Below, in pieces: positions 17,053 through 37,689 of a stretch of 38,152 bases of DNA. The notes below the pieces were generated by a model. The model ran no database searches. It was not told where the DNA came from and saw only the letters and a list, made by a program, of their open reading frames with translations. The position numbers and the translations under genes are program-made. Positions within the stretch are counted from its first letter, which is position 1; the number at the start of each line of letters is the position of its first letter. Source of the DNA: a virus; the UHGV virus genome UHGV-1370838; one strand, 5' to 3'.

Positions 17053-17064
17053 GTGACATGTCAC
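17053..17064. repeat. perfect 12-bp palindrome GTGACATGTCAC (copy 1 of 3)
   Basis: Read directly; 5 bp after stop of 16677-17048. Confidence 0.8.
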
Positions 17065-17068
17065 AAAC

Positions 17069-17097
17069 AGCCAGCCGATGAGCTGGCTTTGTTTTAT
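17069..17097 (+). terminator. intrinsic terminator
   Basis: AGCCAGC / GCTGGCT stem followed by TTTGTTTTAT. Confidence 0.6.
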
Positions 17098-17138
17098 CCT
17101 CATCAGAGGATATCAACGACATTATCCCCACCAGCGGA

Positions 17139-18614
17139 TTAAGCATAGGGATCGTAATCTGTGATGGCCTTGCCTTGCTGGTTCTGCTGCCCGGGAATTC
17201 GCAGACGCTTCGACACAGGGAACGCAAACGTCAGCAGTAGCGCATCGCCTTTACCAGGCGAACGCCCAAGCCGCTCCTTGATATCTTCCTTCGGTTCGAT
17301 AACGATTTTACCGTCCACTCGAACTTTGTACTCTGCCGCCGACAGATCGTCCGCTGTTTCCTGGTCATCCAGCATCCCGCCCAGCCTCAGCCATGTCTTG
17401 CATGAGTTGAACATCTCCCCACGCTTGTTGAGCATCTGCTGGTCAGTAGACGCGCCACCGAACGGAACAAGTTGCCATGTGCGCCCCCAACCGTCACCGA
17501 TTGACTTCAGACCGGTACCGTAACCAAAGTCGATGAACACTGCGTCAGCCTGATACAGGTCTTCAAAGTCAGCGATACGCTTCGCCATAATCAGATCGTC
17601 GGTAGTCTTGTTGCCAGTCCACAGCACCTTACTGTGTAGCCCCTGCCGCAGGTATATCACCGCGTCATCAACGCCTGAATATGCCGGGTCAACACCGATT
17701 ATCACCGGAGCATGCGCCACCTGCGCAGCGGTTACCACCCGTTTCATTGCCTCATCAGTAAGACCGGTAGGGATAAACTGCAATTCAGATGCATCAGGGA
17801 ATATGCCGCGCACACGGATTTTAACGAAGTCGCTGTCTTCCCCGTAGTCATCAACCCATTTCTGCAACTGCTGTTTGTTAGTGCCTTCCACCGTCCGGCT
17901 GTCAATCTGCGCAGTTTTCCAGCGGTGTTTATATTTGCGGAAACATTCACGGAATCGCCCGGTATTACGCGTCGGGTTTCCGAACGCCACCCAGATAATC
18001 TCAGTGTCTTCGTCCGTTAGCGCACCTTCGGCAACTTCCCACACCAGATCCGCAATGTTCGACGCTTCATCGAATACCACGATGATGCGTTTGCGCTCGT
18101 TGTGTAGTCCGGCGAATGCCTCAGTGTTGTGCTCAGACCAGGGGATTGCGTCAGCTCGCCACCGCTTGTCGTGCCCAGGATCATTGCTGTACATCGCGGT
18201 AGCGGTACAGGTAAACCAGTCTTTCGTGATAGCAAGGTTCGACCACTTGATAATTTCCGGCCAGGTCTTCGTTCGTAGCTGGTTGTCGGTGTTGGCGGTC
18301 ACCACGACCTTACAATCCTCGCAAGTGGACATGCCCCAGTTGATCAGCATTGAGATGAATGCGGATTTACCAATACCGTGACCAGAAGCGCGTGCCAGCA
18401 TAAGCGGCTGATAGCGCGTCTCTGGATTCTGCAGGTGATCACGTATCTCTCGGAACGCATCAGCCTGCCACTGACGTGGGCCGGTGGCATGTGCCAGTTC
18501 AGTCCCCTCTTCCCCCCACGGGAACGCATAGAGGGCATAGCCAAGCGGATCGTGAGTGAACCCTGCAATATCCTCGATCAACTGCTCTTCAGGAGATAAC
18601 GCTGTATCTGTCAC
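17139..18614 (-). CDS. terL: terminase large subunit
   Basis: 491-aa ORF with Walker A-like GHGIGKS; GTG start overlapping terS stop. Confidence 0.9.
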   Translation of the reverse strand: MTDTALSPEEQLIEDIAGFTHDPLGYALYAFPWGEEGTELAHATGPRQWQADAFREIRDHLQNPETRYQPLMLARASGHGIGKSAFISMLINWGMSTCEDCKVVVTANTDNQLRTKTWPEIIKWSNLAITKDWFTCTATAMYSNDPGHDKRWRADAIPWSEHNTEAFAGLHNERKRIIVVFDEASNIADLVWEVAEGALTDEDTEIIWVAFGNPTRNTGRFRECFRKYKHRWKTAQIDSRTVEGTNKQQLQKWVDDYGEDSDFVKIRVRGIFPDASELQFIPTGLTDEAMKRVVTAAQVAHAPVIIGVDPAYSGVDDAVIYLRQGLHSKVLWTGNKTTDDLIMAKRIADFEDLYQADAVFIDFGYGTGLKSIGDGWGRTWQLVPFGGASTDQQMLNKRGEMFNSCKTWLRLGGMLDDQETADDLSAAEYKVRVDGKIVIEPKEDIKERLGRSPGKGDALLLTFAFPVSKRLRIPGQQNQQGKAITDYDPYA

Positions 18615-19207
18615 TGATTACCATCCTGACGTTCTTTGAGTCGCTTCCTGGCTGCCGCTATGCGATCAGCAATTGTCACATTCACATTAACATCCAGGCG
18701 TTCTTTGAACGCGTTGACGTCGACGTGCTTACCAATCAGTTCGAGGTTCTTCACCTTGTCAGGCCATTTAATTTTTTTGAGGATTGTCTCTATCGAATCC
18801 TCGTTCATGTTCATGATGGTCGATGACAGATCAAAGCCACTAAGCGTAGTGCGCCAGATTTTCGGCCACTCGCGGATTGGCTTAAGGCTCCCATCGTCGT
18901 TGAGGATGTCGATCACGTCCATCTGGTCGATCTCCACCAGGCGCATGAGAACGTAATCAGCACTGACGCGCATTCGTTTGTTGCGCTCCTCCATCAACTC
19001 GGCAATCCGTTTTTGAATGCGTTCATCGCGCATCATGACACTGGCTTTAACTGCCGCTGTATTTGGGGAGAATCCTGCGTTAATCGCTGCCTGAGTCTGG
19101 TTTTCAGGCGTTTTGATGTATGACTGGCAATAAGCCTCCTGCATTGCTGTTAGTGGCTTAAATTGCGTTGATTTGCGTTTATAGGTTTTAGGTTCAGCAG
19201 GCATCAT
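18611..19207 (-). CDS. terS: terminase small subunit
   Basis: Start moved to the ATG ATG pair at 19202-19207; the longer ORF prefix is low-complexity Thr/Ile/Val translated from DNA repeats. Confidence 0.7.
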   Translation of the reverse strand: MMPAEPKTYKRKSTQFKPLTAMQEAYCQSYIKTPENQTQAAINAGFSPNTAAVKASVMMRDERIQKRIAELMEERNKRMRVSADYVLMRLVEIDQMDVIDILNDDGSLKPIREWPKIWRTTLSGFDLSSTIMNMNEDSIETILKKIKWPDKVKNLELIGKHVDVNAFKERLDVNVNVTIADRIAAARKRLKERQDGNQ

Positions 19208-19214
19208 AACCACC

Positions 19215-19246
19215 GTGGTAATAGTTACCGTTGTGGTAATAGTACC
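19215..19246. repeat. tandem GTGGTAATAGT(T)ACC repeats in terS leader
   Basis: Two copies at 19215-19229 and 19233-19246; GGTAA and TTACC half-sites in everted orientation. Confidence 0.5.
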
Positions 19247-19316
19247 ATGCAAAATAAAGCCGCCATAGTTGGCGGCAGTATTCAAAACCATCAAATTCAT
19301 CATGCATAATCTACTC

Positions 19317-19328
19317 GTGACATGTCAC
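19317..19328. repeat. perfect 12-bp palindrome GTGACATGTCAC (copy 2 of 3)
   Basis: Overlaps stop codon of 19325-19672, 14 bp upstream of the longest terS ORF. Confidence 0.8.
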
Positions 19329-19672
19329 ACTATTAATTTCGTTTCATGCCAGCCTTTAGTCACCCAGCATTGTGAGTCACCATTACACGGACATGAATTA
19401 ACTGGAACTCTCTCGCCGCACTTACCGCAAAGTTTTCTGCTGATCGATTTTATACGCCCGCGCACACGTGCATCATCCTGGCGGATCAGCAGCGCGATGT
19501 ACTCGGCCATTTCATAGGGATCGCGACCAGGGCGCCGGGCGGCGCAGTTCCGCGCCAGCATTTCCTGCTCCTGCTTATCCAGCACCAGTTCAATTTTGCG
19601 CTCACCGGCGGCGGACTGCCGAGCGCGCTGCGCGGCTTTGCGTTCTGCGGGGGATTTAGCCACGAATCGCAC
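19325..19672 (-). CDS. putative DNA-binding regulator (ribbon-helix-helix-like N-terminus, Cys-rich C-terminus)
   Basis: 115-aa ORF, GTG start; strand-helix-helix pattern KIELVLD...EMLARNCAARR...PYEMAEYIALL and CGKCG...CPC motif; immediately upstream of terminase genes. Confidence 0.45.
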   Translation of the reverse strand: MRFVAKSPAERKAAQRARQSAAGERKIELVLDKQEQEMLARNCAARRPGRDPYEMAEYIALLIRQDDARVRGRIKSISRKLCGKCGERVPVNSCPCNGDSQCWVTKGWHETKLIV

Positions 19673-19778
19673 TCCACGCCAGATTGATTAATGACTCCCA
19701 GGCAATATAAACCCGGATACCAGCAGCCAGGCCGAAACCAATCACCATGGCATAAAGCAGAGCGTTGCACTTGTTCAT
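19656..19778 (-). CDS. 40-aa single-pass membrane peptide
   Basis: ATG at 19776-19778 preceded by AGGAGGTGAAGTA; TAATG overlap with upstream stop; hydrophobic core. Confidence 0.45.
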   Translation of the reverse strand: MNKCNALLYAMVIGFGLAAGIRVYIAWESLINLAWSAIRG

Positions 19779-20320
19779 TACTTCACCTCCTGCGGCGGTT
19801 CCGGTAGCGGCATCCAGTGTGACGGTTTCCACGACGCACCAGGAATTATCCACCCATCATTAGCGTCAGGATGCCCCGGGATGTAAGTCGCCCATTTCAT
19901 TCGCCAGTCACCTTTCCTGTCAAACTCCACGGCAACAAGAACGGCTGTTTTGGTATTCGGCATTCGCTCACTACAGCTTATCCAACCATCCGGAGTTACC
20001 GGAGAGTTGCCATTTATATCGAAGTTTGGCTCTGCGTCCTGAACCAGGAGGATGTAACCATTCTTGGCAGTATCAAGTTCTAACGCCTCGGTGACGGTAC
20101 CGAAATAGCGATTACCTAAATCAGCATCACAAGTGCTTACATCAATGGAAACTTCCATCCCTTCGATTAATTCTGGCAAGTTGTAAGTTTGGCTTACAGG
20201 CTCTGCTTCCAGTGATGCCAGTGCAATTCGTGCCAGTTCCATTTGTTCGCCACGAGTAAGTCCGTTATCAAGCGGATTTTTAATGAATAATTCGATACGT
20301 TCTTTGGTTATAGCGCTCAT
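19778..20320 (-). CDS. DUF551-like protein
   Basis: C-terminal HWMPLPEPP motif typical of DUF551 as I recall it; ATG with AAAGGAGAG SD. Confidence 0.65.
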   Translation of the reverse strand: MSAITKERIELFIKNPLDNGLTRGEQMELARIALASLEAEPVSQTYNLPELIEGMEVSIDVSTCDADLGNRYFGTVTEALELDTAKNGYILLVQDAEPNFDINGNSPVTPDGWISCSERMPNTKTAVLVAVEFDRKGDWRMKWATYIPGHPDANDGWIIPGASWKPSHWMPLPEPPQEVK

Positions 20321-20321
20321 A

Positions 20322-20942
20322 TCACTCTCCTTTGATGCGAATGCCAGCGACGCGTGGCACATTAACTTCCACGATGCGCACAGTTGGTTTGTACATCTCA
20401 ATCGCTGTCAGCCAGTCAGCGCCAGTCATGCGCTTTTCTGCATCGCCATTAGTCCACTTAACCGGTACACCAATAGCCTTCATCGCGATTTCTATTTCCC
20501 CGGCAATGGCGCTTTTTCCGCAACCAGTAAAACCAGAAACAACGACAAGAACTTCGCCTTTGGCTGGTTTTATTTCCCGCGCTTCCAGTTCTGCTATGCG
20601 CTTCTCTGATGCTTCAAGTAACGCCTGCTTATCGCGTAGCGCTTCTTCCAGTTCAGCAACATGGCACTCACTATCAATAAGGTTGTTCTCTGCGGCTTCC
20701 AGCTCAACACGCAGCTTCCCTACCGTTAGCGCAATATCCTCGTTCTCCTGGTCGCGGGATTTGATGTATTGCTGGTTTCTTTCCCGTTCATCCAACAATA
20801 CCAGCGCGATATCTGGCGAAAAGTGCTTCATAAAATCGTTAAGCGCATTAATTCGCTGATCGAAAGGCATTACAGGTGCTTCACCAGCAATTTTTGTTTT
20901 TTCAGCGATTTCACGAAGCTTTTGATAATCAATCTTGCTCAC
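20322..20942 (-). CDS. Ead/Ea22-like protein with C-terminal P-loop motif
   Basis: Coiled-coil N-half; GFTGCGKS Walker A-like motif near C-terminus; GTG start overlapping upstream stop. Confidence 0.6.
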   Translation of the reverse strand: MSKIDYQKLREIAEKTKIAGEAPVMPFDQRINALNDFMKHFSPDIALVLLDERERNQQYIKSRDQENEDIALTVGKLRVELEAAENNLIDSECHVAELEEALRDKQALLEASEKRIAELEAREIKPAKGEVLVVVSGFTGCGKSAIAGEIEIAMKAIGVPVKWTNGDAEKRMTGADWLTAIEMYKPTVRIVEVNVPRVAGIRIKGE

Positions 20943-21694
20943 TGGTTGCCTCCTTTGCGAAGCTGGGCAGCAAAGTCAACTAACCACTCAGTCATTTCAA
21001 CCTTCCCTACCAAGTCTGAACCAGGGTGCATACAGCAATCACTCTGCGCCGCTTTGAAATCCTTATACTCATATTCTTGGGCCACCAGATTTTTTGCAGC
21101 TTCTATAGCAGCATCCACCCCCTGCGCCCGGACTTCAGCCAGGAAAGCGTCGGTGGCTGGGGTTTCGATATTAGGCAGAAGCGCATAATCGCAAATCGTA
21201 TCGATCGCAGGATCACAACAGTCATCCTCGTTGCGTGGTCGTTCGCCAACCTTCGTTGACGATTGCATGATGATTCCCCAGCAAATACTATCGACCTCTT
21301 CGCTCCATCCATCGCAAGCATCACCGCGATAGTCGTCGATTGCAGCCTCAGCCGATTCGATAGCTTCCTCAGCAGTTTTGTGCCATTCGAAATTATGCTC
21401 AGAGCCATATGAGAAATATGAATGTCCCGCCTTCAGCCCCGCATTCTCCGCCGCCAGCGCCGAAAACTTCTCGTGTGCCAACTTAACAGCCGAATCAGCC
21501 TGCTTAATTGACTCAATCGCTCTCTGGTGGTCTTCGGCCAGCGCATTAGCACGCACCAGTTGCACTTCCAGTTGCGTTGCCAAATCGCTGATCAGCTTTG
21601 CCACACTGCGCATATCAACGGCACCACATTCTGCTTTCAGTTCCGAAGCCATCTCATGCCCGGCGGCAACTAACCCTTTGATATTACTTTCCAT
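20939..21694 (-). CDS. Ead/Ea22-like Cys-rich protein
   Basis: 251-aa ORF; GAGGG SD; several CC/CxxC clusters. Confidence 0.55.
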   Translation of the reverse strand: MESNIKGLVAAGHEMASELKAECGAVDMRSVAKLISDLATQLEVQLVRANALAEDHQRAIESIKQADSAVKLAHEKFSALAAENAGLKAGHSYFSYGSEHNFEWHKTAEEAIESAEAAIDDYRGDACDGWSEEVDSICWGIIMQSSTKVGERPRNEDDCCDPAIDTICDYALLPNIETPATDAFLAEVRAQGVDAAIEAAKNLVAQEYEYKDFKAAQSDCCMHPGSDLVGKVEMTEWLVDFAAQLRKGGNQ

Positions 21695-21755
21695 CTTTAC
21701 CCTCGCTTATCCACATAACTTATTGATTACATTGATAACTAAAAAGATCGTCGAT

Positions 21756-22100
21756 TCAGAACTCTTCGATGTTCCAGCCACCACCTGCTTTCTTTGGCTT
21801 AACCGTTACCCCGATGATTCGGAACGGATACTGATCTGCGGCGACTTTGGTTTTCACCCTGGCGTCGTCGGTCCAGAAACCTTTCACTTCGTGCAGTTCC
21901 ATCTCGCCGGTGGCGAGCATCACAGCAAAATCGGGCGTATAGAACGTGTTGTCAGCTAACCGCAACTTGATACCCTCGAATCGATACCAGGCGATTTCCC
22001 CTGCACGTTTACGCTGCTCAAGGTGCTGGCAATACGCAGATTCTGTTTTGTTCATCTGGCCTGTTTTGAGTCGACCAAGAGCCTGTATCTGTTTTCTCAT
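21756..22100 (-). CDS. PD-(D/E)xK nuclease-like protein (DUF1064-like, putative resolvase)
   Basis: 114 aa; PDFAV...ELHEVKG motif; first gene after an operator pair. Confidence 0.55.
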   Translation of the reverse strand: MRKQIQALGRLKTGQMNKTESAYCQHLEQRKRAGEIAWYRFEGIKLRLADNTFYTPDFAVMLATGEMELHEVKGFWTDDARVKTKVAADQYPFRIIGVTVKPKKAGGGWNIEEF

Positions 22101-22103
22101 GAT

Positions 22104-22180
22104 TTACCTCTAAGGTAATTAGAAACCACATAAGACACGAAATCAATAGATTTTAGAATGTTTTGTTACCTGATAGGTAA
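22104..22180. promoter_or_regulatory. two operator palindromes TTACCTCTAAGGTAA (22104-22118) and TTACCTGATAGGTAA (22166-22180)
   Basis: Perfect TTACC-N5-GGTAA copies, centres 62 bp apart, between P-like stop and DUF1064 start. Confidence 0.6.
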
Positions 22181-22217
22181 TTATTGAGACGTAAAAAAAT
22201 GCGCTATCGCGCTGGTA

Positions 22218-23018
22218 TTACTTGATAAATCCTGCCGCCTTTCCCCGCCTGTATTCCTCCATCAGCCACTGCGCCGGTGTTATTCCCCCAAGGGTGGCGG
22301 CGTTAGGCATGCACCCGAAACTTCGCCCTGGTGGATGGTAAACGTCTCTCCCTGTGTCCGGAGGCGTACTCATGGGCTCTGGCTTTGCCTGTATGCTGAT
22401 CACCGGATCGGGTATCTGCTGTCCGGAAGCCACCTTTTTCGCCCAATCATCGAGCAGCCTGCGTGCGTGTTTCTCAACCTCAATCTCGCTAAGCTGGCGC
22501 TGATACATTGCACGGCGGGTATCACATACGACCCAGTACATAACCGGATGTCGCCACGGGAATCTTTCGGGACCACCAGGATATAAACTTTTTTCCTTGC
22601 TGTACCGGTGAAACTCCGCCATCACATCGTCAATGGTGACGCCAAGAACCATCTTGCTGTCTTTGCACCACTTGATAAATTGCCCTGGAGACGGCCAGAA
22701 CGGAGATTCACTGGCGCGGGCGTGGCGCATACCAGCAGAAACCTGTTCACGGGTTCGGATCCCCCCTTCGGCAAACGCAGCAATCCACTGCTGTTTTGCA
22801 GCAACTTCCTGCTCTGGCGTCTTCAGGTTGGTTACCACTGCCGCCGGAAACAGTTGTTTCAGCTGTTTAAAAAGGGCATCAACAAGCCTCTCTGCTGACA
22901 TGTTCACCACATTGTCATTGTTGACGTACTGATGCTCATAACCTGACATGCGAGAAAGGGCTTCTCCGTCACGGTTTTGTATCGCGGTAAAAACGTTGTT
23001 CACAAGAAATCCTCCCAT
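22218..23018 (-). CDS. replication protein P-like (helicase loader)
   Basis: GMRHARASESPFWPSPGQFIKWCKD closely matches the lambda P motif as recalled; start overlaps O-like gene. Confidence 0.8.
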   Translation of the reverse strand: MGGFLVNNVFTAIQNRDGEALSRMSGYEHQYVNNDNVVNMSAERLVDALFKQLKQLFPAAVVTNLKTPEQEVAAKQQWIAAFAEGGIRTREQVSAGMRHARASESPFWPSPGQFIKWCKDSKMVLGVTIDDVMAEFHRYSKEKSLYPGGPERFPWRHPVMYWVVCDTRRAMYQRQLSEIEVEKHARRLLDDWAKKVASGQQIPDPVISIQAKPEPMSTPPDTGRDVYHPPGRSFGCMPNAATLGGITPAQWLMEEYRRGKAAGFIK

Positions 23019-23815
23019 GCTTCAGGGCTGTTCCAGTGCGGAACGTTGTTATCAGGTAATGTTGATTGCTTCTGTCTGCTAATCTGCAGCCGCCTTGCCA
23101 GCTTCTGCTCCCACTGTGCCTGATGGTATGCCTTACCCTCAGCCATCCAGTAAATTCTGAACTCTGCAAGTTCCTGTGCCGTTGGCAGACTGTCCAGGTA
23201 GATCCCCTGCAATGAGCTTTTCCGAAGAAAGTCATCTGATGGCTGCCATTGTTCATGCATGACAAATTTGCCTAATTGCCCTGGCCCACCAGGAGGAACA
23301 AAGTTATTCATCACGGCGTTGTTTGCGCCGGGGTCATTAGGCACAGAATCCCCGCTTTTTGTCCTGCTCTCCCTCTCTTGGTTAAATGACTGGTTATATG
23401 ACTGGTTCTGGATCCCGTTTTTGGGATCATTCAACATCCCGTTTTTGGGATCATTCAACATCCCGTTTTTGGGTATATTCCCGTTTTCGGTAACATTACC
23501 GTTTTCGGGTTCATTACCCCCTTCTCGGTTGCCTTTAATGTTCCCGTTTTTGGTTATATTAAGAGAGAAAACCCGCACTCTTTTCGTCGCTCCCTTTCTC
23601 TCTCCGGTATCTGAAATAAGCCCCATTTTCATGAGCGATATAAGTCCGGCCTGCACGGTTTTTTTATTCAGGCAAGTGTCTTTAACGAGGCGTTCTATGC
23701 TGGGGTAGCAGAGGTTATATTCATCGGCTCTGTCAGCCATCGAGAGCAGTATGAGCTTTAATGATGAGCTACCTGGATCTGTCTCCCAGGCCCAATCTGT
23801 TGCATGTCTGCTCAT
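23000..23815 (-). CDS. replication initiator O-like protein
   Basis: N-terminal HTH-like domain; central NGN/KNG peptide repeats encoded by the DNA iterons; GGAG SD. Confidence 0.75.
   Translation of the reverse strand: MSRHATDWAWETDPGSSSLKLILLSMADRADEYNLCYPSIERLVKDTCLNKKTVQAGLISLMKMGLISDTGERKGATKRVRVFSLNITKNGNIKGNREGGNEPENGNVTENGNIPKNGMLNDPKNGMLNDPKNGIQNQSYNQSFNQERESRTKSGDSVPNDPGANNAVMNNFVPPGGPGQLGKFVMHEQWQPSDDFLRKSSLQGIYLDSLPTAQELAEFRIYWMAEGKAYHQAQWEQKLARRLQISRQKQSTLPDNNVPHWNSPEAWEDFL
23412..23560. repeat. replication origin iterons inside O-like gene
   Basis: ATCCCGTTTTTGGGATCATTCAAC twice in tandem, then degenerate copies (CCCGTTTTTGGGTAT, CCGTTTTCGGTAAC, CCGTTTTCGGGTTC, CCCGTTTTTGGTTAT); each has TCCC...GGGA dyad symmetry. 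Confidence 0.75.
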
Positions 23816-23830
23816 GATTAATCTCCGCTA

Positions 23831-24031
23831 TCAGCTTGAGTGTTGTGGGGAGGAATTAATCATGATCTGCTTAATCTCTGCCCTGATGCGACGGTTTGAT
23901 TCCATGGTGCACTCAACACAGTGTCCGTTGTAAACCCAGCGTTCACTGTCATGTCCGTGCTTACATGGTTTTCCGGTGTAGTAGCGTTTAAGTCCGCGCT
24001 TTGCGGCATCAATACGTGTAATGATTTCCAT
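23831..24031 (-). CDS. small zinc-finger-like protein at cII position
   Basis: ATG at 24029-24031; CKHGH...CVEC motif; between cro-like and O-like genes. Confidence 0.45.
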   Translation of the reverse strand: MEIITRIDAAKRGLKRYYTGKPCKHGHDSERWVYNGHCVECTMESNRRIRAEIKQIMINSSPQHSS

Positions 24032-24111
24032 GGTAAGCCCTGTTATTAGTATTGGGATTACGGTTATTTTGTGCTGACACAAAAAAAAGATCAACCATAT
24101 TTGGTTTTTTA

Positions 24112-24126
24112 TTACCTTTGAGGTAC
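24112..24126. promoter_or_regulatory. operator-like palindrome TTACCTTTGAGGTAC (1 mismatch)
   Basis: Read directly, upstream of Zn-finger/O/P genes. Confidence 0.45.
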
Positions 24127-24131
24127 GAATA

Positions 24132-24160
24132 GATATGAAAAGACCGCCGGATGGCGGTCT
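24132..24160 (-). terminator. hairpin AGACCGCC-GGAT-GGCGGTCT downstream of cro-like gene
   Basis: Perfect 8-bp stem; on minus strand followed by TTTTCAT. Confidence 0.55.
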
Positions 24161-24181
24161 ACAGAGGGTTGTGGCTGGATA

Positions 24182-24412
24182 TCATGAGTAGAAGAAGTAT
24201 GCCAGTTCTGCTTTTGAGCGCAGCCATTGTCTTGATTTACAGGCTTTAAAAAGCCCATCCATCAATACCTTACCTGGCATTTTGCGCTTACCTGTTAAGT
24301 GAGTCTGGATATAGTGACTCGTCGTTCCGGCTTCCTGTGCGAAGGCTTCACGCTCATCCGGAGTAAGTGCAAGCCAGTGCTTTTTGAAATCGAAATGTCC
24401 GTTATCGCTCAT
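24182..24412 (-). CDS. Cro-like HTH regulator
   Basis: 76 aa; HTH segment TSHYIQTHLTGKRKMP; divergent from CI-like gene across operator cluster. Confidence 0.7.
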   Translation of the reverse strand: MSDNGHFDFKKHWLALTPDEREAFAQEAGTTSHYIQTHLTGKRKMPGKVLMDGLFKACKSRQWLRSKAELAYFFYS

Positions 24413-24437
24413 AGCTATTGCCTGATATTTATTTCAG

Positions 24438-24511
24438 ATAATAAATATTCACCCATAAGGTAACAAAAATCAAGGATAGTTACCTATGGGGTGCATTTAC
24501 CTGTTGGGTAA
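24438..24511. promoter_or_regulatory. tripartite operator region between cro-like and CI-like genes
   Basis: Three operator copies at 24449-24463 (TCACCCATAAGGTAA), 24480-24494 (TTACCTATGGGGTGC), 24497-24511 (TTACCTGTTGGGTAA); minus-strand -10 TATTAT at 24438-24443 with -35 TTGTTA 17 bp upstream. Confidence 0.65.
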
Positions 24512-24566
24512 TATTGCTTTAAATTGAATCATCTACTGATTCATATATGAGGCGATTTTCCAGAAA

Positions 24567-25151: not shown

Positions 25152-25171
25152 AACCATATTTTTCAGTAAGT

Positions 25172-25196
25172 AAGCCGCCTTATGGCGGCTTTTTTA
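25172..25196 (+). terminator. intrinsic terminator after CI-like gene
   Basis: AAGCCGCC-TTAT-GGCGGCTT followed by TTTTTATT. Confidence 0.7.
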
Positions 25197-28222: not shown

Positions 28223-28865
28223 GAAATACACACTAATCTATGCAGATCCACCCTGGGTATACCGGGACAAAGCCGCGGATGGTAATCGCGGTGCCGGTTT
28301 TAAATATCCGGTTATGAGTGTGCTGGATATTTGCCGCCTTCCTGTGTGGGATTTGGCCGATGAAAACTGTCTGTTGGCCATGTGGTGGGTGCCAACACAA
28401 CCACTCGAAGCACTAAAAGTTGTTGAAGCCTGGGGATTCCGTCTGATGACCATGAAGGGCTTCACGTGGATAAAATGTGGTAGTCGACAACCAGATAAAC
28501 TGGTTATGGGTATGGGACACATGACTCGCGCCAATAGTGAAGATTGCCTGTTTGCAGTAAAGGGAAAACTACCTCCACGCATTAATGCAGGGATCGTTCA
28601 GTCATTTACCGCACCGCGGCTTGAGCATTCAAGAAAACCAGATGTCGTTCGTGAAAAACTTGTGCAATTGTTAGGCGATGTTTCTCGCATTGAACTGTTC
28701 GCCCGCCAGTCGTCTCATGGTTTCGATGTTTGGGGTAATCAGTGCGAAGACCCGGCAGTGCAACTACATCCTGGATACGCGTTGGATATTGGCGGATTAA
28801 CAAATGCATTCAGCAATGCTCCGCTGTCACCAACAGACAACCAGGGGCGGGAGCGTGCAGCATGA
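28215..28865 (+). CDS. MT-A70 family N6-adenine DNA methyltransferase
   Basis: IYADPPW catalytic motif near N-terminus; ATG at 28215 with GGGGTGG SD. Confidence 0.8.
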
Positions 28866-30780: not shown

Positions 30781-30822
30781 AATTCACCCGTATAGAAACC
30801 ATTTTCATGACGGTATGAGAGT

Positions 30823-30837
30823 ATACCTTTAAGGTAA
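30823..30837. promoter_or_regulatory. operator-like palindrome ATACCTTTAAGGTAA (1 mismatch) upstream of int
   Basis: 43 bp upstream of int start; nested inside inverted repeat GACGGTAT...ATACCGTC. Confidence 0.45.
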
Positions 30838-30892
30838 TACCGTCACCTGTACCGCAGAAAAATATGGTGTAGAGTGAATAGAAATGAATACA

Positions 30893-30926
30893 TAAAAACA
30901 AAAACCCTCTGTAAAAACAGAGGGTT
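30893..30926 (-). terminator. intrinsic terminator ending the lysis operon
   Basis: AACCCTCTG-TAAAAA-CAGAGGGTT perfect 9-bp stem; minus-strand T-run TTTGTTTTT. Confidence 0.75.
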
Positions 30927-30979
30927 AAATTAGTATCTGAATAGGAATGAGTTGCTATGAGTTAGCTGTTAATCATTCC

Positions 30980-31016
30980 CACTCAATTATTTACGGACAC
31001 CATAACCAATTGAGTG
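30980..31016. repeat. 9-bp inverted repeat CACTCAATT / AATTGAGTG with 19-bp spacer (attP-region candidate)
   Basis: Read directly, in the noncoding stretch between int and lysis genes. Confidence 0.3.
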
Positions 31017-31097
31017 ATAACATTTTTCCAAAGATGAATTTTTCCCGTACCGTTTTATATACCGTCACCGGAAATCAGTACCATGAAAAATGCCATG

Positions 31098-31580
31098 CTA
31101 TCTGGTCAGGGTGTCGTACTGTTTTTCGCAGACTCTTCCGGCTTCGGCTGCCCGGTCAGCATACTCTGCCAGTTGTCTGTTTCTCTCGAGAGATTTGCTG
31201 AGCACGTCGGCAAGCAAAACTCCGGTATCTGCGGCTGACGACCCAGCGCCGACAATGGCGTTATAGTGCCTGAGCTGCTCACGGATGGCAACGAGCTGTT
31301 GCTGCAACCGGCCAGCGCGAGCGGCAGCATCAAGAGCATCATTGCGCGCCTGGTCGATCCTCTGCTGCGCTTCACGTTCATTGATCGATTTCTCCTGTTC
31401 GTAGTGCTGACGAACTCTCTCATCTTCGGTTTTGCGGTCTTCTTTCGCCTGTGCATACCCGGCGTCGTACTGACGACTGCCGTGCACATTCCAGGCAACA
31501 ACTCCTGATATGACCAGAACAGCAAGCACCGCCATGATAATCAACTGATTACGGTATGCTTTTACGAATGCCCAGATCAT
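31098..31580 (-). CDS. i-spanin (Rz-like)
   Basis: N-terminal TM segment then Gln/Arg/Ala-rich coiled coil; last gene of lysis cassette. Confidence 0.65.
31106..31381 (-). CDS. o-spanin (Rz1-like lipoprotein) nested in +1 frame
   Basis: Signal peptide with lipobox LAGC; Pro-rich mature part; start uncertain (31381 or 31342). Confidence 0.5.
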   Translation of the reverse strand: MNVKRSRGSTRRAMMLLMLPLALAGCSNSSLPSVSSSGTITPLSALGRQPQIPEFCLPTCSANLSRETDNWQSMLTGQPKPEESAKNSTTP

Positions 31581-32206
31581 ACGGCCAGCACCTTACTGGC
31601 AGTAACGTACCGCGCGCGCCGGTCGTCGATGCCGTTCCGGCCACCATTGATAATCAGAGTTACACGTGCAATATCTCCGGGATACTTCATGCAGCCTTTG
31701 CTGGAGAAGAACCACGCCGCGCTACGAGCCGCGTATTCGTCCTGCGTCAACAGCTCAGGATTCTCCAGCAGGTCCACTTTTAGACCGTTTCCGCAGTCAC
31801 GATAGTTATTCAAACCGGTAATCTGGATAAGCCCGCGCCCACGGTAAAACCAGCCGTCAGTCGGCCCGTTGTTCCCCATGCGCTTGCTATACACCAGATT
31901 GGCGATCGCACGCTGGCGCTCCAGCGGTAACGATGGCTCACCAGCACGACGGCCCAGCGCGTTGGCCTGGCCCTGAGTGAGGCGCCCGGCACGGACGAAT
32001 CCCGCCAGCCCAGTCACGCTGTAGTTGAAGTTCTCCTGCAGCCGGGTGAAGCCTCCAGACTCATGCCCGACCTGAGCAATAAACATTGCCTGATCTTCTG
32101 GTTTGCTGATACCAAACTCTTTCATCGCAGAAGTTATATGCGAGAACCAGCGTGCGGCCAGCGCCTCGCTAATACCAGCAGCTCGCTGGAATTGTTTAAT
32201 CTCCAT
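31577..32206 (-). CDS. endolysin, glycoside hydrolase family 19-like
   Basis: [16 protein letters not shown]-type GH19 motif; GAGG SD. Confidence 0.8.
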
Positions 32207-32504
32207 GTTTAGACCTCGTTATTTTGAAAATCTGAACGACGTTACCGCGAGTTTTAAGAACCGCAGCAAGCATGACAGCGTTGATAATGACCTCAGATAA
32301 ATCCACAGCCATTGGCGTGCGTAACCAGATTGCATAGACGACACGAACAGGAATACTGGCCGCAGCAACAATAAGGAAATAAGCAAGCCACCCTCCCCAC
32401 CTTCGATGTTGTGAACCGTTACGCCGGAATGTGACAACACGAATTGCTATGCCAGTACAAATAAGTGCATTGGTGATAAGCAAAACAAGCTCATTAGTTA
32501 CCAT
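32196..32504 (-). CDS. holin/antiholin-like membrane protein
   Basis: 102 aa with about 3 TM segments; between holin and endolysin. Confidence 0.55.
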
Positions 32505-32895
32505 CGCCTTTTCTCCCCGGAATTAACTCGCGTGGATTATCGGAACGGTGATAGAGCCAGATGCCAATTCGAACTGCAACGATTGCTGACACGAATGCAC
32601 CAGCAGAGAAAACAATCCCTTTCTCGAAAGAGTCCTGCGTGATGGTAGGGATCAGGCTGGCTATGCCGATAAGAATTGATGCTGCTGGTTTATAGAAAAG
32701 AAGTCCGCAGAGAAAGCTAAGCATCGATAAGAGTACGCGACGATGAATTGGGTACTCTACCGCAGAGGTAACAAAAATTACCGCACCAGCAAGAGCACCT
32801 AAAGCCACCTCAGGCGGTATACCAACGAACACGGACGCCAGTGCAGTCAGGCTTAACCCCTGATTTACTGACTCTGTTGTCAGCACATGCGCCAT
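32494..32895 (-). CDS. holin-like membrane protein
   Basis: ATG at 32893-32895 with GGTGG SD; multiple TM segments; first gene of lysis cassette. Confidence 0.6.
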   Translation of the reverse strand: MAHVLTTESVNQGLSLTALASVFVGIPPEVALGALAGAVIFVTSAVEYPIHRRVLLSMLSFLCGLLFYKPAASILIGIASLIPTITQDSFEKGIVFSAGAFVSAIVAVRIGIWLYHRSDNPRELIPGRKGDGN

Positions 32896-33000
32896 AGTGA
32901 CCACCGTTTATTGTGCATAAAGAACCCCCTTAGTTGGTGAGTTCATCATACACAATAAACCATATGTGGATTAATTTTGATCGGATAACTCTTAACGAAA

Positions 33001-33015
33001 TTACCCTAAAGGTGA
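33001..33015. promoter_or_regulatory. operator-like palindrome TTACCCTAAAGGTGA (1 mismatch)
   Basis: In divergent region between holin and acetyltransferase. Confidence 0.4.
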
Positions 33016-33051
33016 TATCATTAACGCATCTTACTCAAAACGATAGCGATT

Positions 33052-34911
33052 ATGTCTTCTTTAAAATACAGAACTGATATAGGCGGACTCAGGGCTATTG
33101 CTGTCATGGCAGTTGTCCTTTATCACTTCGGAGTCAAAGGGTTTTCTGGTGGGTTTTCAGGAGTAGATATATTCTTTGTTATATCAGGGTATCTGATGAC
33201 TGGAATAATTTACACAAAGATAGAAAATGAAAACTTTTCACTGTTAGGATTTTATCTTGATAGGGCAAGAAGGATTATACCTGCTTTAACTGTAGTTTCA
33301 GTTGCTGTTCTGATAGTTGGTTACTTCATTCTTTTACCTTCTGAATATGAATACCTGGCTCAACACGTAAGAAGTAGCCTTTTATTTTTCTCAAACGTTG
33401 AGTATTACCATAGCATTGATTATTTTGATACTGCATCAAAGCAGAAATGGCTTCTTCATACATGGTCGCTTTCTGTAGAGTGGCAGTTTTACATGGTATA
33501 TCCAATCATAATGATGGTAATTGCAAAGCTATTGGGCGCTAAGCATATAAGGTATGTTGTTGCCATCCTTGCAATTATATCATTTACTGCCTCAGTGTAT
33601 CTTTCTTATAATAATCAGGGGGCTGCATTTTATCTTCTGTCAAGCAGAGCTTGGGAGATGCTGGCTGGCGGCCTTGCCTACCTTCTTCCTACTATACAAA
33701 ATTCAAAACGCACTGCTGTATTTAGATGGATTGCCATAGCCTTTGCAGTATCGGGGATAGTCTTGCTTAACAGCTTAATGAAGTGGCCTGGGTATCTTGC
33801 CTTAATACCAGTCGTTTCTACTTTCTTTGTCATTTATCTTGGATGTAAAGATAACCTGTTACTTGATAATGCATTATCTCAATGGGTTGGGAAAATTTCA
33901 TACTCGGTATATCTGGTTCACTGGCCCATAGTTGTCTATATGTCAATGAATAAGATGGATGATATGGTTTATACAGTATCAGGTGTTGCCTTATCAATTC
34001 TTATTGGTGCCGCATCATTTTATTTAATTGAAAACCCTTCAAGAAAGGCACTTTCAAAATTTAAAAACGGCAGGTCCTTGAATGAATTAACTTTAATCGT
34101 GCTACCTGTAGGTGGTGTAGTTGGTTTGTGCTTCGCTGTACTATTGCTATCTGGAATTCCATCAAGGTTTTCGTTTGTCACAATGACGTCCGAACAGCTA
34201 AAAGAACAAATGAACAGGTATTGGGTTGATGGAGACAAGCCTCACCCTGTACCGAAGACAGGTGACAAAAAAATAGTAATAATCGGTAATTCTCATGGCA
34301 TAGATCTGACTTATGCACTTACTGAAAATGGGATGAAGGGTGATATAACTTATATAAGAACTACAAACTTATGTTCAAACTTTGGTTATACACCAAACGA
34401 CATGCCCTATGTAGAAAAGTGCAAAAAAATATTCAATGACGTGATCTCATCTCCAGCCATAGCTGAAGCTAACATTATAATCCTTCATGATGATTATGGC
34501 GTTGGCGATCTGTTCGGGATGCTTTACTCTATAGGCAAAATACAGGAGAGGACTAAAGGAGAAGTTATTGTATTTGGGCCTAAGATGAAGTTTACGGCAC
34601 AGCCAATGGAAATAATTAAGTCTGCTTTTAAATCTGGCGTAAACACAGTTGATGGGATAAATAAATACTCTAAAAAGTATTATGACAATAGTAGAGTTGA
34701 AATTAACAATACGATAAAAGGCTATCTTGGTAGCAACCAGCATTCGTATAAATACATAGATACGCTTGCCGAGCAGTGCGGAAAGTCAATGAATTGTGAC
34801 ATCCTTTCTACTAAAGGTGATTATCTTTACTTTGACAATAGTCATTTCACTCTAGAAGGCTCAAGGGAGTTTGGGAAAAAATTAAAAAATGACAAGCCAT
34901 TTATTTTTTAA
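33052..34911 (+). CDS. O-antigen acetyltransferase (acyltransferase-3 membrane domain fused to SGNH-like domain, OafA/Oac-type)
   Basis: 619 aa; N-terminal GGLRAIAV...LYHF motif and about 10 TM segments; C-terminal soluble domain with GNSH; visibly AT-rich versus flanks. Confidence 0.85.
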   Translation: MSSLKYRTDIGGLRAIAVMAVVLYHFGVKGFSGGFSGVDIFFVISGYLMTGIIYTKIENENFSLLGFYLDRARRIIPALTVVSVAVLIVGYFILLPSEYEYLAQHVRSSLLFFSNVEYYHSIDYFDTASKQKWLLHTWSLSVEWQFYMVYPIIMMVIAKLLGAKHIRYVVAILAIISFTASVYLSYNNQGAAFYLLSSRAWEMLAGGLAYLLPTIQNSKRTAVFRWIAIAFAVSGIVLLNSLMKWPGYLALIPVVSTFFVIYLGCKDNLLLDNALSQWVGKISYSVYLVHWPIVVYMSMNKMDDMVYTVSGVALSILIGAASFYLIENPSRKALSKFKNGRSLNELTLIVLPVGGVVGLCFAVLLLSGIPSRFSFVTMTSEQLKEQMNRYWVDGDKPHPVPKTGDKKIVIIGNSHGIDLTYALTENGMKGDITYIRTTNLCSNFGYTPNDMPYVEKCKKIFNDVISSPAIAEANIIILHDDYGVGDLFGMLYSIGKIQERTKGEVIVFGPKMKFTAQPMEIIKSAFKSGVNTVDGINKYSKKYYDNSRVEINNTIKGYLGSNQHSYKYIDTLAEQCGKSMNCDILSTKGDYLYFDNSHFTLEGSREFGKKLKNDKPFIF

Positions 34912-34919
34912 TTGATGAT

Positions 34920-34936
34920 GGGGAGCATTGCTCCCC
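34920..34936. other. hairpin GGGGAGC-ATT-GCTCCCC between convergent genes
   Basis: Perfect 7-bp stem; no U-tract on either strand. Confidence 0.4.
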
Positions 34937-34946
34937 ACGCATAACA

Positions 34947-37199
34947 TCAACCTATTTTAGTGTAAGTCCAGTTAAATGTTGCCGCGCCCTGACTTGTTAC
35001 CGCTACATTCCTTCCCGATGAAGAAAATGTTATGAATGCTCCGGCTTTTAATGGCGTTAGAGTTAATGAGCCATCATACATCGCTAGTTGTGTAGAAGAG
35101 TAGTTTGTGCCGCCGCCAGAACCCCATACACTAATGAGATACATCCCCTGCATATCAGGCAATGCAAACAATGTTGTTTCGGTGTTGGCATTTACGGATT
35201 GTGTTCCTTTTGCGGTGTAGAAACCAGGTGTCTGTAGCCCCGTTGATGATACTTGTTGAGTGTAACCGCCAGAAACAGTACCAGATATCGGGGTGCAGAA
35301 CCAGTTAACGTTACCCTGACTAACTACTGATAAAACCGGGGAGCCGCCTGCAGGCGCGCGCCAACGACCGCTGTACACGTCAATTCGGGATGTTGTGTCC
35401 TTAGCGTATAACGTAATAGGGTATCCACCAGTCCCGGAGTAAGGGATTGCGCTATCAGACAAGTCATCCTCAGAAGAATCGATTATAACCTGACTTGTCC
35501 CGGATGCCTTTATGAAAGAAACGACACCACTTGCCGCCGGGGCTACAGTTTTTAACTGATTTTGCCCTGCTGTGAGCCCGGATATTTTGCCATTAGTATT
35601 CTCAAAATGGAAAAGAGTTGCATCCCCACTACCATCTGTGGAAATTATATTTCCTTCCGCATCAAATCCCACAATGTTAACGCTGTGTGAGTTAATGAAA
35701 TGGACACCTGCTCCGCCGAATGAACCACCAGAAAGTGTAATGCTTGATTGGTCCATAGCGCAGTTGAGCATAGTTACAGACATAACGGCGCCAAATTGAT
35801 AAGGCGAGACGCATCCGGATGCGTAGCAAGTCTCCATCAAAATGGTCGTACCAAGCGCCTTAATAAAGCCGTCGTGGCAATTCCGCGCCCATACGTTTTG
35901 CAACTTAGTAAGGTAAGTTCCGGTGGCGTCGTAGAAACAGCGCCATGCACCATGTACTGTGCAGTTTTTAATCTCAGACATTTCAAGACCAGTAGTACCG
36001 GCTTCAGTGGAATAGAAATTAAATGCTATCTTCCCACCATCATCTTCAGGATTCGTTGGTGTGGTTCCTGGATCATAGAAAATATAAAGACCATCAATAA
36101 AAATCTGAATCATTTTTGTCGATAGGGAATCACCTTGATCTAAAGCAAAGGCTGATATATTCCCAACAATTGACATGAAAGACTGAGAACGGTTTATTGC
36201 ATCAGTCCCTTCACCAACAATTCTGACTGAATTATTAAATATAATTGTGGCATTATAATATCCAAGACCTTTTGGGATTAGCACCTTTTTACCAGTATTA
36301 CATGCGGCCTGCAGCGCCGCATAATCCAACGATTGCGTGAGAGACGTAACAAATGGATATACCATCTGAGCAGCTGATAGTGTTGAAAATATCTCGCTTA
36401 AAGGGTGAAGCGTTCCGTCAATTGTCGCTCCAAAATCAACAACACTAATGGCTTGTGCATTTTTTATATGCTGCGAAAGAGAAATTGCCCCCTGGTAAGG
36501 CTGCTTCACTGTTATCAGCGCATCACCTTTCCCGTCAGCGCTGCTGGCCAACTGGTTGAATACGTCCGCCGCCGTTCCTGAAGGCACAGGGAAAGGAACA
36601 GGCTTCCCGTTTTGAATGCCGATAATGCTGCCTTCAAGCTGAGCGAGTGGTGGCAGCGGATCGATATAAGCGTCAGGAACTCGGATGGTATGGTTGATGT
36701 TCGATAAAGCCGTGCTGTCCACATAATTCTTTGTGGCTGCATCCTGCGGGTTAACCGGGTCTTTCAGGTTCCGAATATAGTTGTTCAGCGCGTTATAATA
36801 ATTTGCTACGAATGACGGCTTGCGCAGCGCCAAGCTAAACCAACTTCGAACCTGCTGGATCAGCATCGTTAGCTTATCAAAAGCATCCTCATGCACTTCT
36901 GCAAAGAACTTACCCTGATTACGCAAATCAGTTTCCTGCGTAACCGGGAGGTCTCGTGATATAGAAATCTGATAACCGTTAGCTAACGCCTTCGACAGAA
37001 TTACATTACCGCCATTATATCCACCAGCCCCAGTGACAGTGTAATCAGTATCAAGAGCCAGCACAGCGATATTTTCGTCAAGGTCAACCACCTGTACTAC
37101 CAGATCAGATTCCTTGAAAACCCTAAAGGTATACGGAAATGATGTCGTAACGCCGTTACCTGTGTATTCGTTGTGGTCAACTTCGGTTGAGACCGTCAT
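34947..37199 (-). CDS. tailspike / tail fibre protein
   Basis: 750 aa; N-terminal particle-binding-type domain; Gly/Ser/Thr-rich beta-helix-like body; GGAG SD. Confidence 0.8.
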   Translation of the reverse strand: MTVSTEVDHNEYTGNGVTTSFPYTFRVFKESDLVVQVVDLDENIAVLALDTDYTVTGAGGYNGGNVILSKALANGYQISISRDLPVTQETDLRNQGKFFAEVHEDAFDKLTMLIQQVRSWFSLALRKPSFVANYYNALNNYIRNLKDPVNPQDAATKNYVDSTALSNINHTIRVPDAYIDPLPPLAQLEGSIIGIQNGKPVPFPVPSGTAADVFNQLASSADGKGDALITVKQPYQGAISLSQHIKNAQAISVVDFGATIDGTLHPLSEIFSTLSAAQMVYPFVTSLTQSLDYAALQAACNTGKKVLIPKGLGYYNATIIFNNSVRIVGEGTDAINRSQSFMSIVGNISAFALDQGDSLSTKMIQIFIDGLYIFYDPGTTPTNPEDDGGKIAFNFYSTEAGTTGLEMSEIKNCTVHGAWRCFYDATGTYLTKLQNVWARNCHDGFIKALGTTILMETCYASGCVSPYQFGAVMSVTMLNCAMDQSSITLSGGSFGGAGVHFINSHSVNIVGFDAEGNIISTDGSGDATLFHFENTNGKISGLTAGQNQLKTVAPAASGVVSFIKASGTSQVIIDSSEDDLSDSAIPYSGTGGYPITLYAKDTTSRIDVYSGRWRAPAGGSPVLSVVSQGNVNWFCTPISGTVSGGYTQQVSSTGLQTPGFYTAKGTQSVNANTETTLFALPDMQGMYLISVWGSGGGTNYSSTQLAMYDGSLTLTPLKAGAFITFSSSGRNVAVTSQGAATFNWTYTKIG

Positions 37200-37303
37200 G
37201 TTAAATCTCCAGATAGTCGCAGCACCCGTTGCGCCGCATATCTGGTTATTCTATTACCTGAAAAACCATATATGGATAGAAAGGCTGTAAATACGAATAG
37301 ATA

Positions 37304-37318
37304 TTACCTTTCAGGTAA
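37304..37318. promoter_or_regulatory. operator palindrome TTACCTTTCAGGTAA
   Basis: Perfect copy between tailspike start and the LexA-box gene. Confidence 0.55.
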
Positions 37319-37355
37319 TTTGCAAAACGTGCTGGATAGCAAACAAATTATTTGC

Positions 37356-37375
37356 TACTGTATAAATATACAGTT
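37356..37375 (+). promoter_or_regulatory. LexA (SOS) box TACTGTATAAATATACAGTT
   Basis: CTGT-N8-ACAG with AT-rich spacer, perfect dyad; immediately upstream of 37381/37396 ORF. Confidence 0.75.
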
Positions 37376-37395
37376 ATTGCATGGAGAAGATTAAG

Positions 37396-37653
37396 ATGCA
37401 GCAGTATCACTATCCACTGGAAGACGGATTTACCGAAAGGATTCACACGCCGGGAGGCGTCAGGTCACTGGTGGAGGGATCGCACTTGATGAAATTACTC
37501 CGGGATCTCGATAAGGATGGATTTAATGTCGATGGCCCACTTGCCGAACTGACTGCACTGATTAACTACGTCACCAGCTCACAGATGTCTATGCGGGATC
37601 TGCAAACACATCTCGACTATTGTGCCGAACAATTACGAAAACAAACCCGGTAA
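37396..37653 (+). CDS. SOS-regulated small protein, candidate antirepressor
   Basis: ATG at 37396 has GGAG SD (37381 ATG lacks one); 85-90 aa; LexA box overlaps its promoter. Confidence 0.5.
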   Translation: MQQYHYPLEDGFTERIHTPGGVRSLVEGSHLMKLLRDLDKDGFNVDGPLAELTALINYVTSSQMSMRDLQTHLDYCAEQLRKQTR

Positions 37654-37677
37654 ATTTAAAGGCCGCAAGAGCGGCCT

Positions 37678-37689
37678 GTGACATGTCAC
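37678..37689. repeat. perfect 12-bp palindrome GTGACATGTCAC (copy 3 of 3)
   Basis: 25 bp after stop of 37381-37653; preceded by hairpin GGCCGC-AAGA-GCGGCC. Confidence 0.8.

Follow-up and report, generated by a model that had tools for sequence, protein, structure and literature searches.

Ribbon-helix-helix (RHH) repressors such as P22 Arc and Mnt, CopG, MetJ, AmrZ, ParD and TacA are paired with operators that are short dyads, so that an RHH-type regulator with a dyad operator is a known kind of system. Here we analysed UHGV virus genome UHGV-1370838, a stretch of 38,152 nucleotides (nt) referred to as the window, which is a nearly complete, circularly permuted epsilon15/phiV10-like temperate podovirus genome of the genus Uetakevirus. 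It carries three exact copies of a 12-base-pair (bp) palindrome, GTGACATGTCAC, one of which (copy 2) holds the stop codon of a gene for a 115-amino-acid homologue of epsilon15 gp49 and phiV10 p55, a member of PHROG 536 ('transcriptional regulator'). Comparison of phage sequences showed a spacing-specific dyad that is under strong selection and physically tied to this one protein family across many phage types. The best overall explanation, which we hold with moderate confidence, is that the dyad would serve as operator for the gp49-family protein that the phage itself encodes, which would bind it as a symmetric dimer.

The predicted strand-helix-helix fold of the N-terminal part of the protein has the RHH repressors named above as its top structural matches, and as in those pairs the site is a short dyad, here with strand residues that covary with the bases at the dyad centre. 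The phage protein differs in having an extra conserved basic N-terminal helix, a Cys-rich C-terminal domain and no significant RHH match in Pfam or NCBIfam. Its sites are placed at a gene 3' end and not at a promoter, and they occur as one to four dispersed single sites without tandem arrays. New with respect to the known kind are the domain combination, the stop-codon-embedded operator kept across phage backbones and the matS-like half-sites. The pairing of this gene with this site, which recurs across numerous unrelated temperate phages, seems to be new to the literature, and a literature search for the sequence found no paper containing the 12-mer.

The half-sites recall a host system, MatP and its site matS (GTGACRNYGTCAC; matS19, GTGACACTGTCAC). 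MatP reportedly contains an RHH domain. The 5-bp half-sites GTGAC/GTCAC are identical in the two systems and the adjoining purine/pyrimidine rule holds in most phage copies, but the spacer is 2 bp in the phage site and 3 bp in matS. In addition, the phage protein is without the four-helix bundle and coiled coil of MatP, and an hhalign comparison of the family profile with E. coli MatP (sequence checked against PDB 4D8J) gave a probability of 0.2%. The SlmA site GTGAGTACTCAC is likewise a perfect palindrome of 12 bp and shares the outer GTGA...TCAC (PMC3020112); its centre is GTAC in contrast to CATG in the phage site, and SlmA is a TetR-type helix-turn-helix protein.

With respect to gene order the nearest counterpart is lambda Q, which like the family gene closes an early operon and has a terminator and the late genes directly beyond it. 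The family shows no homology to Q proteins, has no convincing promoter at its site and coexists with real Q genes. LacI on the operator situated within the 3' end of lacI is said to act as a roadblock that gives rise to truncated lacI mRNA and tmRNA tagging. In both cases the site of a regulator overlaps the end of its own coding sequence, where bound protein would halt polymerase ahead of transcription of the stop codon; the proteins are unrelated and the comparison is one of analogy. Stoperators of cluster A mycobacteriophages are short dispersed sites at the ends of genes and transcription units that are thought to stop elongating polymerase. They are asymmetric and orientation-dependent, and a genome has 20-30 of them, to which the immunity repressor binds, whereas the palindrome is symmetric, present in one to four copies per genome and distinct from the immunity operator.

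A preliminary description of this DNA had noted three exact, non-random copies of the palindrome, and this was borne out over the whole window: zero matches were obtained in 100 dinucleotide-preserving shuffles. Allowing up to two mismatches added a single match at 14014, probably a chance one, and the relaxed pattern GTGACNNGTCAC with at most one mismatch gave four matches against 0.81 expected. The flanks of the three copies have no extended similarity in either orientation and the copies are therefore not a duplicated longer segment, in agreement with that description. Every copy has a pyrimidine directly before and a purine directly after it, which makes the dyad effectively 14 bp, Y-GTGAC-AT-GTCAC-R. 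At all three copies the order is gene end, palindrome, terminator, with the terminator 0-40 nt further on in the reading direction of the gene concerned. The contexts first given were also right, copy 1 following the tRNA-adjoining open reading frame (ORF), copy 2 lying on the stop of the 115-residue gene and copy 3 following the LexA-box ORF; it had escaped notice that copy 3 also holds the stop of the opposite-strand ORF 37686-37982. The palindrome had been judged a poor RNA hairpin and more likely the site of a dimeric protein, in keeping with a folding energy of -1.2 kcal/mol (z = 0) and the extension of the dyad to 14 bp.

Whether relatives carry the motif had been suggested as a check, and nearly all of them do. 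The 12-mer is identical across the Uetakeviruses of E. coli, Salmonella and Klebsiella, occurs at the same landmarks within diverged flanks in epsilon15 (2142, 19517 and 39612) and SPN1S, and is also present in phiv142-3 and two Klebsiella phages. It is usually found at three places: the stop codon of the gp49-like gene (site A), the junction of terL with an accessory (moron) gene (site B) and the end of the late operon (site C). Site A was also found in epsilon15, SPN1S, Kp4865-1, phiv142-3 and BUCT711; site B in phiV10, epsilon15, SPN1S, Kp4865-1 and 51 IMG/VR loci; and site C at epsilon15 19517, SPN1S 19662, phiV10 19493, phiv142-3 7086 and BUCT711 18526. The placement is exact: site A starts precisely 1 nt before the regulator stop codon in 77 of 80 IMG/VR relatives, the three exceptions being explained by the end of a contig, by a deletion and, in one case, by a gene that ends differently. 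Rare variants of the palindrome among relatives are single, uncompensated substitutions, and phiV10 has two exact copies and a one-base variant at the p55 stop. The epsilon15 genome has a detailed annotation that gives repressor, IHF, RNase III and integrase sites, and the palindrome is absent from it.

The association of gene and site extends far beyond the genus. An exhaustive HMMER search placed 147 cluster representatives in the protein family, and tblastn detected homologues in 157 phage records from Vibrio, Escherichia, Salmonella, Klebsiella, Yersinia, Aeromonas, Enterobacter, Pectobacterium and Pantoea. Down to ~28% identity, the family spans N15, P2-like, lambda-like, ZF40 and Vibrio phages. 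GTGAC-N2-GTCAC was present at or near the homologue's own stop codon in at least nine other phage backbones; almost always the site lies on or just after that stop, with 0-3 more copies elsewhere. N15 gene 46 has GTGACTGGTCAC over its stop and two further copies in the genome, and the Yersinia P2-like gp14 has GTGACGCGTCAC over its stop and no further copies. Exact GTGACATGTCAC follows the stop by 2 nt in ZF40 (two further copies) and by 6 nt in the lambda-like phage Chlobot (none), and the lambda-like contigs L087-L091 have TGTGACGCGTCACA or GTGACGTGTCAC 1-6 nt after the stop, with no others in the 6-20 kb examined. The site also covers the stop in L096 (~28% identity; one further copy) and, with one mismatch, in Aeromonas AhyVDH1 (no further copies). 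L086 and the Vibrio phage K308 each have three sites in total, none of them on the stop; in these two the site linked to the homologue lies within ~230 nt.

The chance of an exact site within a 250-nt window is ~2e-4 per lineage. In the 1.99 Mb of phage DNA examined, half-sites separated by 2 bp occurred 169 times against ~1.9 expected, in contrast to 0-4 times for each of the spacers 0, 1 and 3-7. The half-site is invariant across distant phages and the central dinucleotide alone varies. Lambda and P2 have neither a homologue of the gene nor the site.

The 115-residue protein matched no Pfam or NCBIfam family at threshold, and phmmer against the PDB returned nothing significant; of the curated RHH models, RHH_5, RHH_1 and RepB-RCR_reg matched just 1-2 of 54 family members (E 0.013-0.07). 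Alignment of these 54 diverse members revealed a basic N-terminal segment with near-invariant R11 and R16, then a strand of alternating hydrophobic residues, a pair of helices and a C-terminal part rich in Cys. The AlphaFold model (pLDDT, the predicted local distance difference test score, 93.5) has RHH proteins as its closest structural matches, and a Foldseek search of it against PDB and BFVD returned nothing significant. The model suggests an RHH-like N-terminal half and a Cys-rich C-terminal half. For the C-terminal 60 residues, putatively zinc-binding, TraR and YbiI were the top profile matches against the PDB, though weak ones (E 0.05-0.08). Comparison of the family with TraR by hhalign gave a probability of 58.8% (E 9.4e-5), with a second Cys pair that differs in spacing from that of TraR and is not CxxC. 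Pfam zf-dskA_traR gave no match, and a profile search with distant family members returned just seven proteins.

The strand sequence varies together with the site centre. Strands of the type [RT]K[ILF]E[LV]xL accompany AT centres (Uetakevirus, ZF40, Chlobot), xE[ILV]Rx[KR] accompanies GC, AC or GT centres (YenM, L086, L089, L090, K308), and TR[RV][DE] accompanies TG or AG centres (N15, L096). Such covariation fits what would be predicted if a ribbon reads the dyad centre.

That the gp49-family protein binds the dyad as a dimer is probable on this comparative evidence, and it also remains the best candidate binder, as the preliminary description had proposed from its RHH-like appearance: stop-proximal sites recur in at least nine other backbones and the predicted model is closest to RHH proteins. 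An RHH-type beta-ribbon would read the central bases of the dyad, and the invariant arginines of the basic N-terminal helix would read the invariant GTGAC half-sites. One site is built into the 3' end of the regulator gene, its TGA stop within a half-site, and the other two window sites lie at the ends of two further transcription units; each site is just ahead of an intrinsic terminator, where early, accessory/SOS-type and late transcription meet. Our proposal for the effect of binding is more tentative, and we consider it less probable than the binding itself. Bound protein may act on RNA polymerase reaching these boundaries, as a roadblock or insulator that reinforces termination, rather than through antitermination or another activity. 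The late operon would then be insulated from early-right and from head-on accessory/SOS-type transcription. By analogy with LacI at the lacI 3' operator, the protein might also limit its own synthesis, polymerase being blocked at its own stop codon.

Several observations weigh against this operator reading. The covariation extends over only about three independent phylogenetic groups, and the homologue loci L097, L098 and L057 are without any site. Copies also lie inside coding genes far from terminators (N15 repA, ZF40 gp08 and gp12, a Klebsiella gp13-like gene), and 'boundary element' is therefore not an apt term for every member. The earlier placement of the motif at gene 3' ends accordingly holds for all window copies and not in general. 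Finally, the hosts all belong to the MatP-bearing clade, which leaves a small chance that a host protein binds the matS-like half-sites.

The same binder could also have the opposite effect, which we think unlikely. In that case the DNA-bound protein would be handed to the passing polymerase and enable it to read through the downstream terminator, the dyad serving as a loading site like the Q-binding element (QBE) of Q or the ops site of RfaH. By such read-through, transcription coming from the early-right operon would turn on terS and the late genes, and at copy 3 the tail-fibre gene past the terminator would be turned on as well. The layout at copies 2 and 3 agrees with this, with the site followed by a terminator and then late genes in the same orientation (terS; tail-fibre gene 34947-37199). 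So does the position of the family gene, which is last in the early operon like lambda Q and in L090 precedes the lysis cassette, and the weak C-terminal match is to RNA-polymerase-binding zinc-finger proteins of the TraR/DksA type. However, read-through at copy 1 would yield only RNA antisense to terL, a promoter region covered by operators lies past the terminator and serves terS itself, and in K308 and L086 the site follows a T-tract and stands 11-19 nt before the terS start codon. The second Cys pair also departs from the CxxC of TraR, and the family coexists with a bona fide Q in N15 and Chlobot and with an Ogr-like regulator in the Yersinia phage.

A host protein might instead read the site, MatP being the candidate and the phage gene a mere neighbour. 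The phage site has matS half-sites with one central base fewer, and K308 also has one true 13-bp matS match. To our knowledge, the MatP-bearing orders are Enterobacterales, Vibrionales, Aeromonadales and Alteromonadales, and all family-bearing phages infect members of these four. We nevertheless find this improbable. The 12-bp spacing never fits the matS consensus, and one spacer-3 site was seen against 169 with spacer 2. The site follows the phage gene and not host range, being absent from lambda and P2, and its centre covaries with the strand of the phage protein. True matS is moreover avoided in prophages (PMC3603311).

Equally improbable in our estimate is that the element acts in RNA, as a small hairpin stacked on the terminator or set between stop codon and following ribosome-binding site, with an effect on 3'-end stability, termination efficiency or translational coupling. 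The palindrome is 0-4 nt from the terminator stems at copies 1 and 3, where the predicted folds are two adjacent hairpins, and in two distant homologue loci the half-sites themselves make up a terminator stem. In L089 (10345-10375) they are extended by GGGTT/AGCCC and a T-tract to form an intrinsic terminator directly after the gene stop, and in L095 (10338-10385) a 20-nt loop separates them and TTTTTT comes next. A ribosome-binding site and start codon come 9-19 nt past the site in N15, Chlobot, L009, K308 and L086. On the other hand, the 12-mer hairpin folds no better than shuffles (z = -0.03). A stem would allow compensatory changes, yet the half-sites are invariant and the rare variants uncompensated. 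The full dyad, with its Y/R flanks, is a signature of double-stranded DNA, and Rfam gave no match at the palindrome.

The preliminary description had also raised a module-boundary site for recombination or cleavage, and the palindrome does coincide with mosaic junctions. We clustered the 60-nt flanks of 76 relatives at site A and 51 at site B. At site A the upstream flanks form one main cluster (73/76) and the downstream flanks at least three; at site B the upstream flanks again form one main cluster (41/51), with at least seven unrelated genes downstream. On the conserved side is the regulator (A) or terL (B), and similarity breaks 2-7 nt from the palindrome, which thus behaves as a short conserved element between modules. 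Most accessory genes at site B share the same junction, TAA-C[AG]C[CT]-palindrome, and the last late gene at site C is an unrelated one in relatives. As a primary role, a recombination point for accessory-gene exchange, whether as a linker or as the target of a nuclease or recombinase, seems to us a slight possibility. The variable cassettes adjoin the palindrome at a single edge and do not sit between two copies, we found neither a nuclease nor a recombinase associated with it, and the copies inside conserved coding genes are no junctions. A functionally constrained island amid fast-changing DNA would look alike. We read the junctions as a probable consequence of such an island serving as anchor or incidental microhomology.

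Variation at site A reflects the presence or loss of a 70-residue ORF (L009 10366-10578), intact in 28 of the 76 relatives. The window retains just the last codons of this ORF, MHDEFDGF*, at 19284-19310 (minus) between copy 2 and the terminator, and the deletion breakpoint is 2 nt past the palindrome.

We give a similarly slight chance to two more far-reaching versions, in which the phage protein and GTGAC-N2-GTCAC would be a deliberate, one-base-shifted copy of MatP/matS, or the protein a DNA-tethered TraR-like factor. As a shifted copy, the phage protein may bind matS, or MatP the phage sites, and so disturb Ter organisation, MukBEF unloading or division timing; alternatively, the phage may keep an organising or insulating site invisible to MatP, which would fit the avoidance of matS in prophages. 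As a tethered factor, the protein may supply RNA polymerase with a secondary-channel module at defined points of the genome. Least credible of all is a pair of back-to-back -35-like hexamers (GTGACA, 5/6 of TTGACA) for divergent promoters: GTGACA-18-CATGAT at copy 2 (minus) and GTGACA-18-AATGAT at copy 3 (plus) match at 9/12 positions each and epsilon15 has GTGACA-17-TAAATT after gp49 (read by eye), but such matches are weak, not conserved and no commoner than in shuffles, copy 1 and most relatives, whose downstream sequence differs, have no well-spaced -10, and the copy-3 candidate would transcribe the late operon antisense.

If the dyad is the operator of the gp49-family protein, a specific DNA target can be proposed for PHROG 536 (epsilon15 gp49, phiV10 p55, N15 gp46), a widespread phage family that lacks a curated domain model and a known function and is found among podoviruses, siphoviruses and myoviruses that infect enteric bacteria, Vibrio and Aeromonas. 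An operator on the regulator's own stop codon, kept to ~28% identity, is an unusual architecture and suggests that control is exerted where transcription units end and not at promoters. The sites also mark points at which accessory genes are swapped, LexA-box-preceded ones included. This would be of use in the annotation and engineering of epsilon15/phiV10-type phages for O157 and Salmonella work.

The features around the three copies are collected in Table 1. The late genes of the window are on the minus strand. Read in the late direction, copy 2 is followed after 40 nt by its terminator, then by two sites resembling repressor operators and then by terS. Copy 1 lies 4 nt past the TAA of the accessory ORF and 4 nt ahead of the terminator of that ORF. 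Copy 3 adjoins the late-operon terminator, and the late operon is here convergent with the LexA-box-preceded ant-like ORF 37381-37653. At this position the last late gene of epsilon15 (gp18) and that of phiv142-3 (Orf12) likewise have the stop codon inside the palindrome, and in phiV10 and SPN1S the stop is 7 nt ahead of it. The hairpins beyond copies 2 and 1 correspond to annotated terminators of epsilon15 (39646-39672) and phiV10 (2238-2257), respectively.

Table 1 Palindrome copies and neighbouring features in the window
Feature	Position	Strand	Remarks
Palindrome copy 1 (site B)	17053-17064		Between convergent terL (minus) and accessory ORF 16677-17048 (plus)
Palindrome copy 2 (site A)	19317-19328		Holds TGA stop (19325-19327, minus) of gp49-family gene
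Palindrome copy 3 (site C)	37678-37689		End of late operon; holds TGA stop of last minus-strand ORF 37686-37982
Gene for 115-residue (probably 112-residue) gp49/PhiV10p55/N15 gp46-family protein	19325-19672	minus	PHROG 536; proposed binder
Intrinsic-terminator-like hairpin and T-tract	19259-19276	minus	Downstream of copy 2; end of early-right operon
Intrinsic-terminator-like hairpin and T-tract	17069-17088	plus	Directly after copy 1; ends accessory gene
Intrinsic-terminator-like hairpin and T-tract	37660-37677	minus	Abuts copy 3; ends late operon
Accessory (moron) ORF	16677-17048	plus	Pfam Phage_gp49_66; ends TAA-CACC-palindrome
98-residue ORF	37686-37982	minus	PHROG 3075; stop codon inside copy 3
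tRNA-Arg, anticodon tct	16402-16478		Accessory region between terL and portal gene, next to ORF 16677-17048
LexA-box match CTGTAAACCCGTACAG	16594-16609		Upstream of accessory ORF 16677-17048
Perfect LexA box CTGTATAAATATACAG	37358-37373		Upstream of ant-like ORF 37381-37653

A scan of the window with Rfam 15 covariance models at the gathering threshold returned the tRNA-Arg (16402-16475) alone. This tRNA overlaps a mechanically called ORF, 16408-16659. Both LexA-box-preceded units run head-on to the late operon, and each ends at a copy of the palindrome. The repressor operator annotated in epsilon15 is ATTACC-N5-GGTAAT, which with up to two mismatches has 14 matches in the window against 1.2 expected, none of them overlapping the palindrome. 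A tandem pair of such operators (19206-19240) covers the real terS start (ATG at 19207 or 19204, minus), and because the gene starts there the mechanical terS ORF 18611-19303 is over-extended across the terminator and two operators.

Other identities were considered for the palindrome and rejected. It is not the immunity-repressor operator, the 14 sites of which are separate, nor a LexA box, the boxes at 16594 and 37358 being separate as well. It is not matS, given a 2-bp spacer in all three window copies and the 169 sites and no homology of the protein to MatP, and it differs from the SlmA site in the four central bases. An intrinsic terminator is excluded by the folding of the 12-mer alone, without a T-tract, and by separate terminator-like hairpins 0-40 nt away. 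Weak matches that are not conserved likewise led us to discard a -35 element. Copies 1 and 2 bracket terS-terL, as a pac or terminase site might, but in three cos phages (N15, Chlobot and the P2-like phage of Yersinia) gene and site remain together at a great distance from the terminase genes. The protein is no general late activator, as the family coexists with Q or Ogr-like regulators, and the weak promoter-like matches and the Q genes of N15 and Chlobot do not suit a Q-type antiterminator with a DNA binding element. An artefact of genome ends was dismissed, as the start of the phiV10 record inside the copy 2 position is a numbering convention, placed after the p55 stop.

In that record the variant copy reads GTGACATGTTAC and is split by the record ends (39101-39104 joined to 1-8), and the very last base is annotated as a 'terminator' feature. 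The sites of N15 (L092), GTGAC-TG/CA-GTCAC at 28550, 33237 and 39269, are placed at the gene 46 stop, inside repA, and between gene 33 and a terminator upstream of anti-repressor genes. K308 (L094) has at 19491-19503 a sequence, GTGACACCGTCAC, that fits the 13-bp matS consensus and is the sole spacer-3 site seen; it overlaps the stop of the gene 19249-19494, just before a hairpin. Two Klebsiella Uetakeviruses have an extra exact copy within the gene for a gp13-like internal virion protein (L084 24674-24685; L104 26462-26473), which the E. coli and Salmonella phages examined are without. A near-copy, GTGACATGGCAC, is kept in many relatives inside the small gene that follows the portal gene, at a distance of ~5.7-6 kb downstream from the regulator. 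Its counterpart in the window, at 14014-14025, has drifted to two mismatches and is probably just coding sequence.

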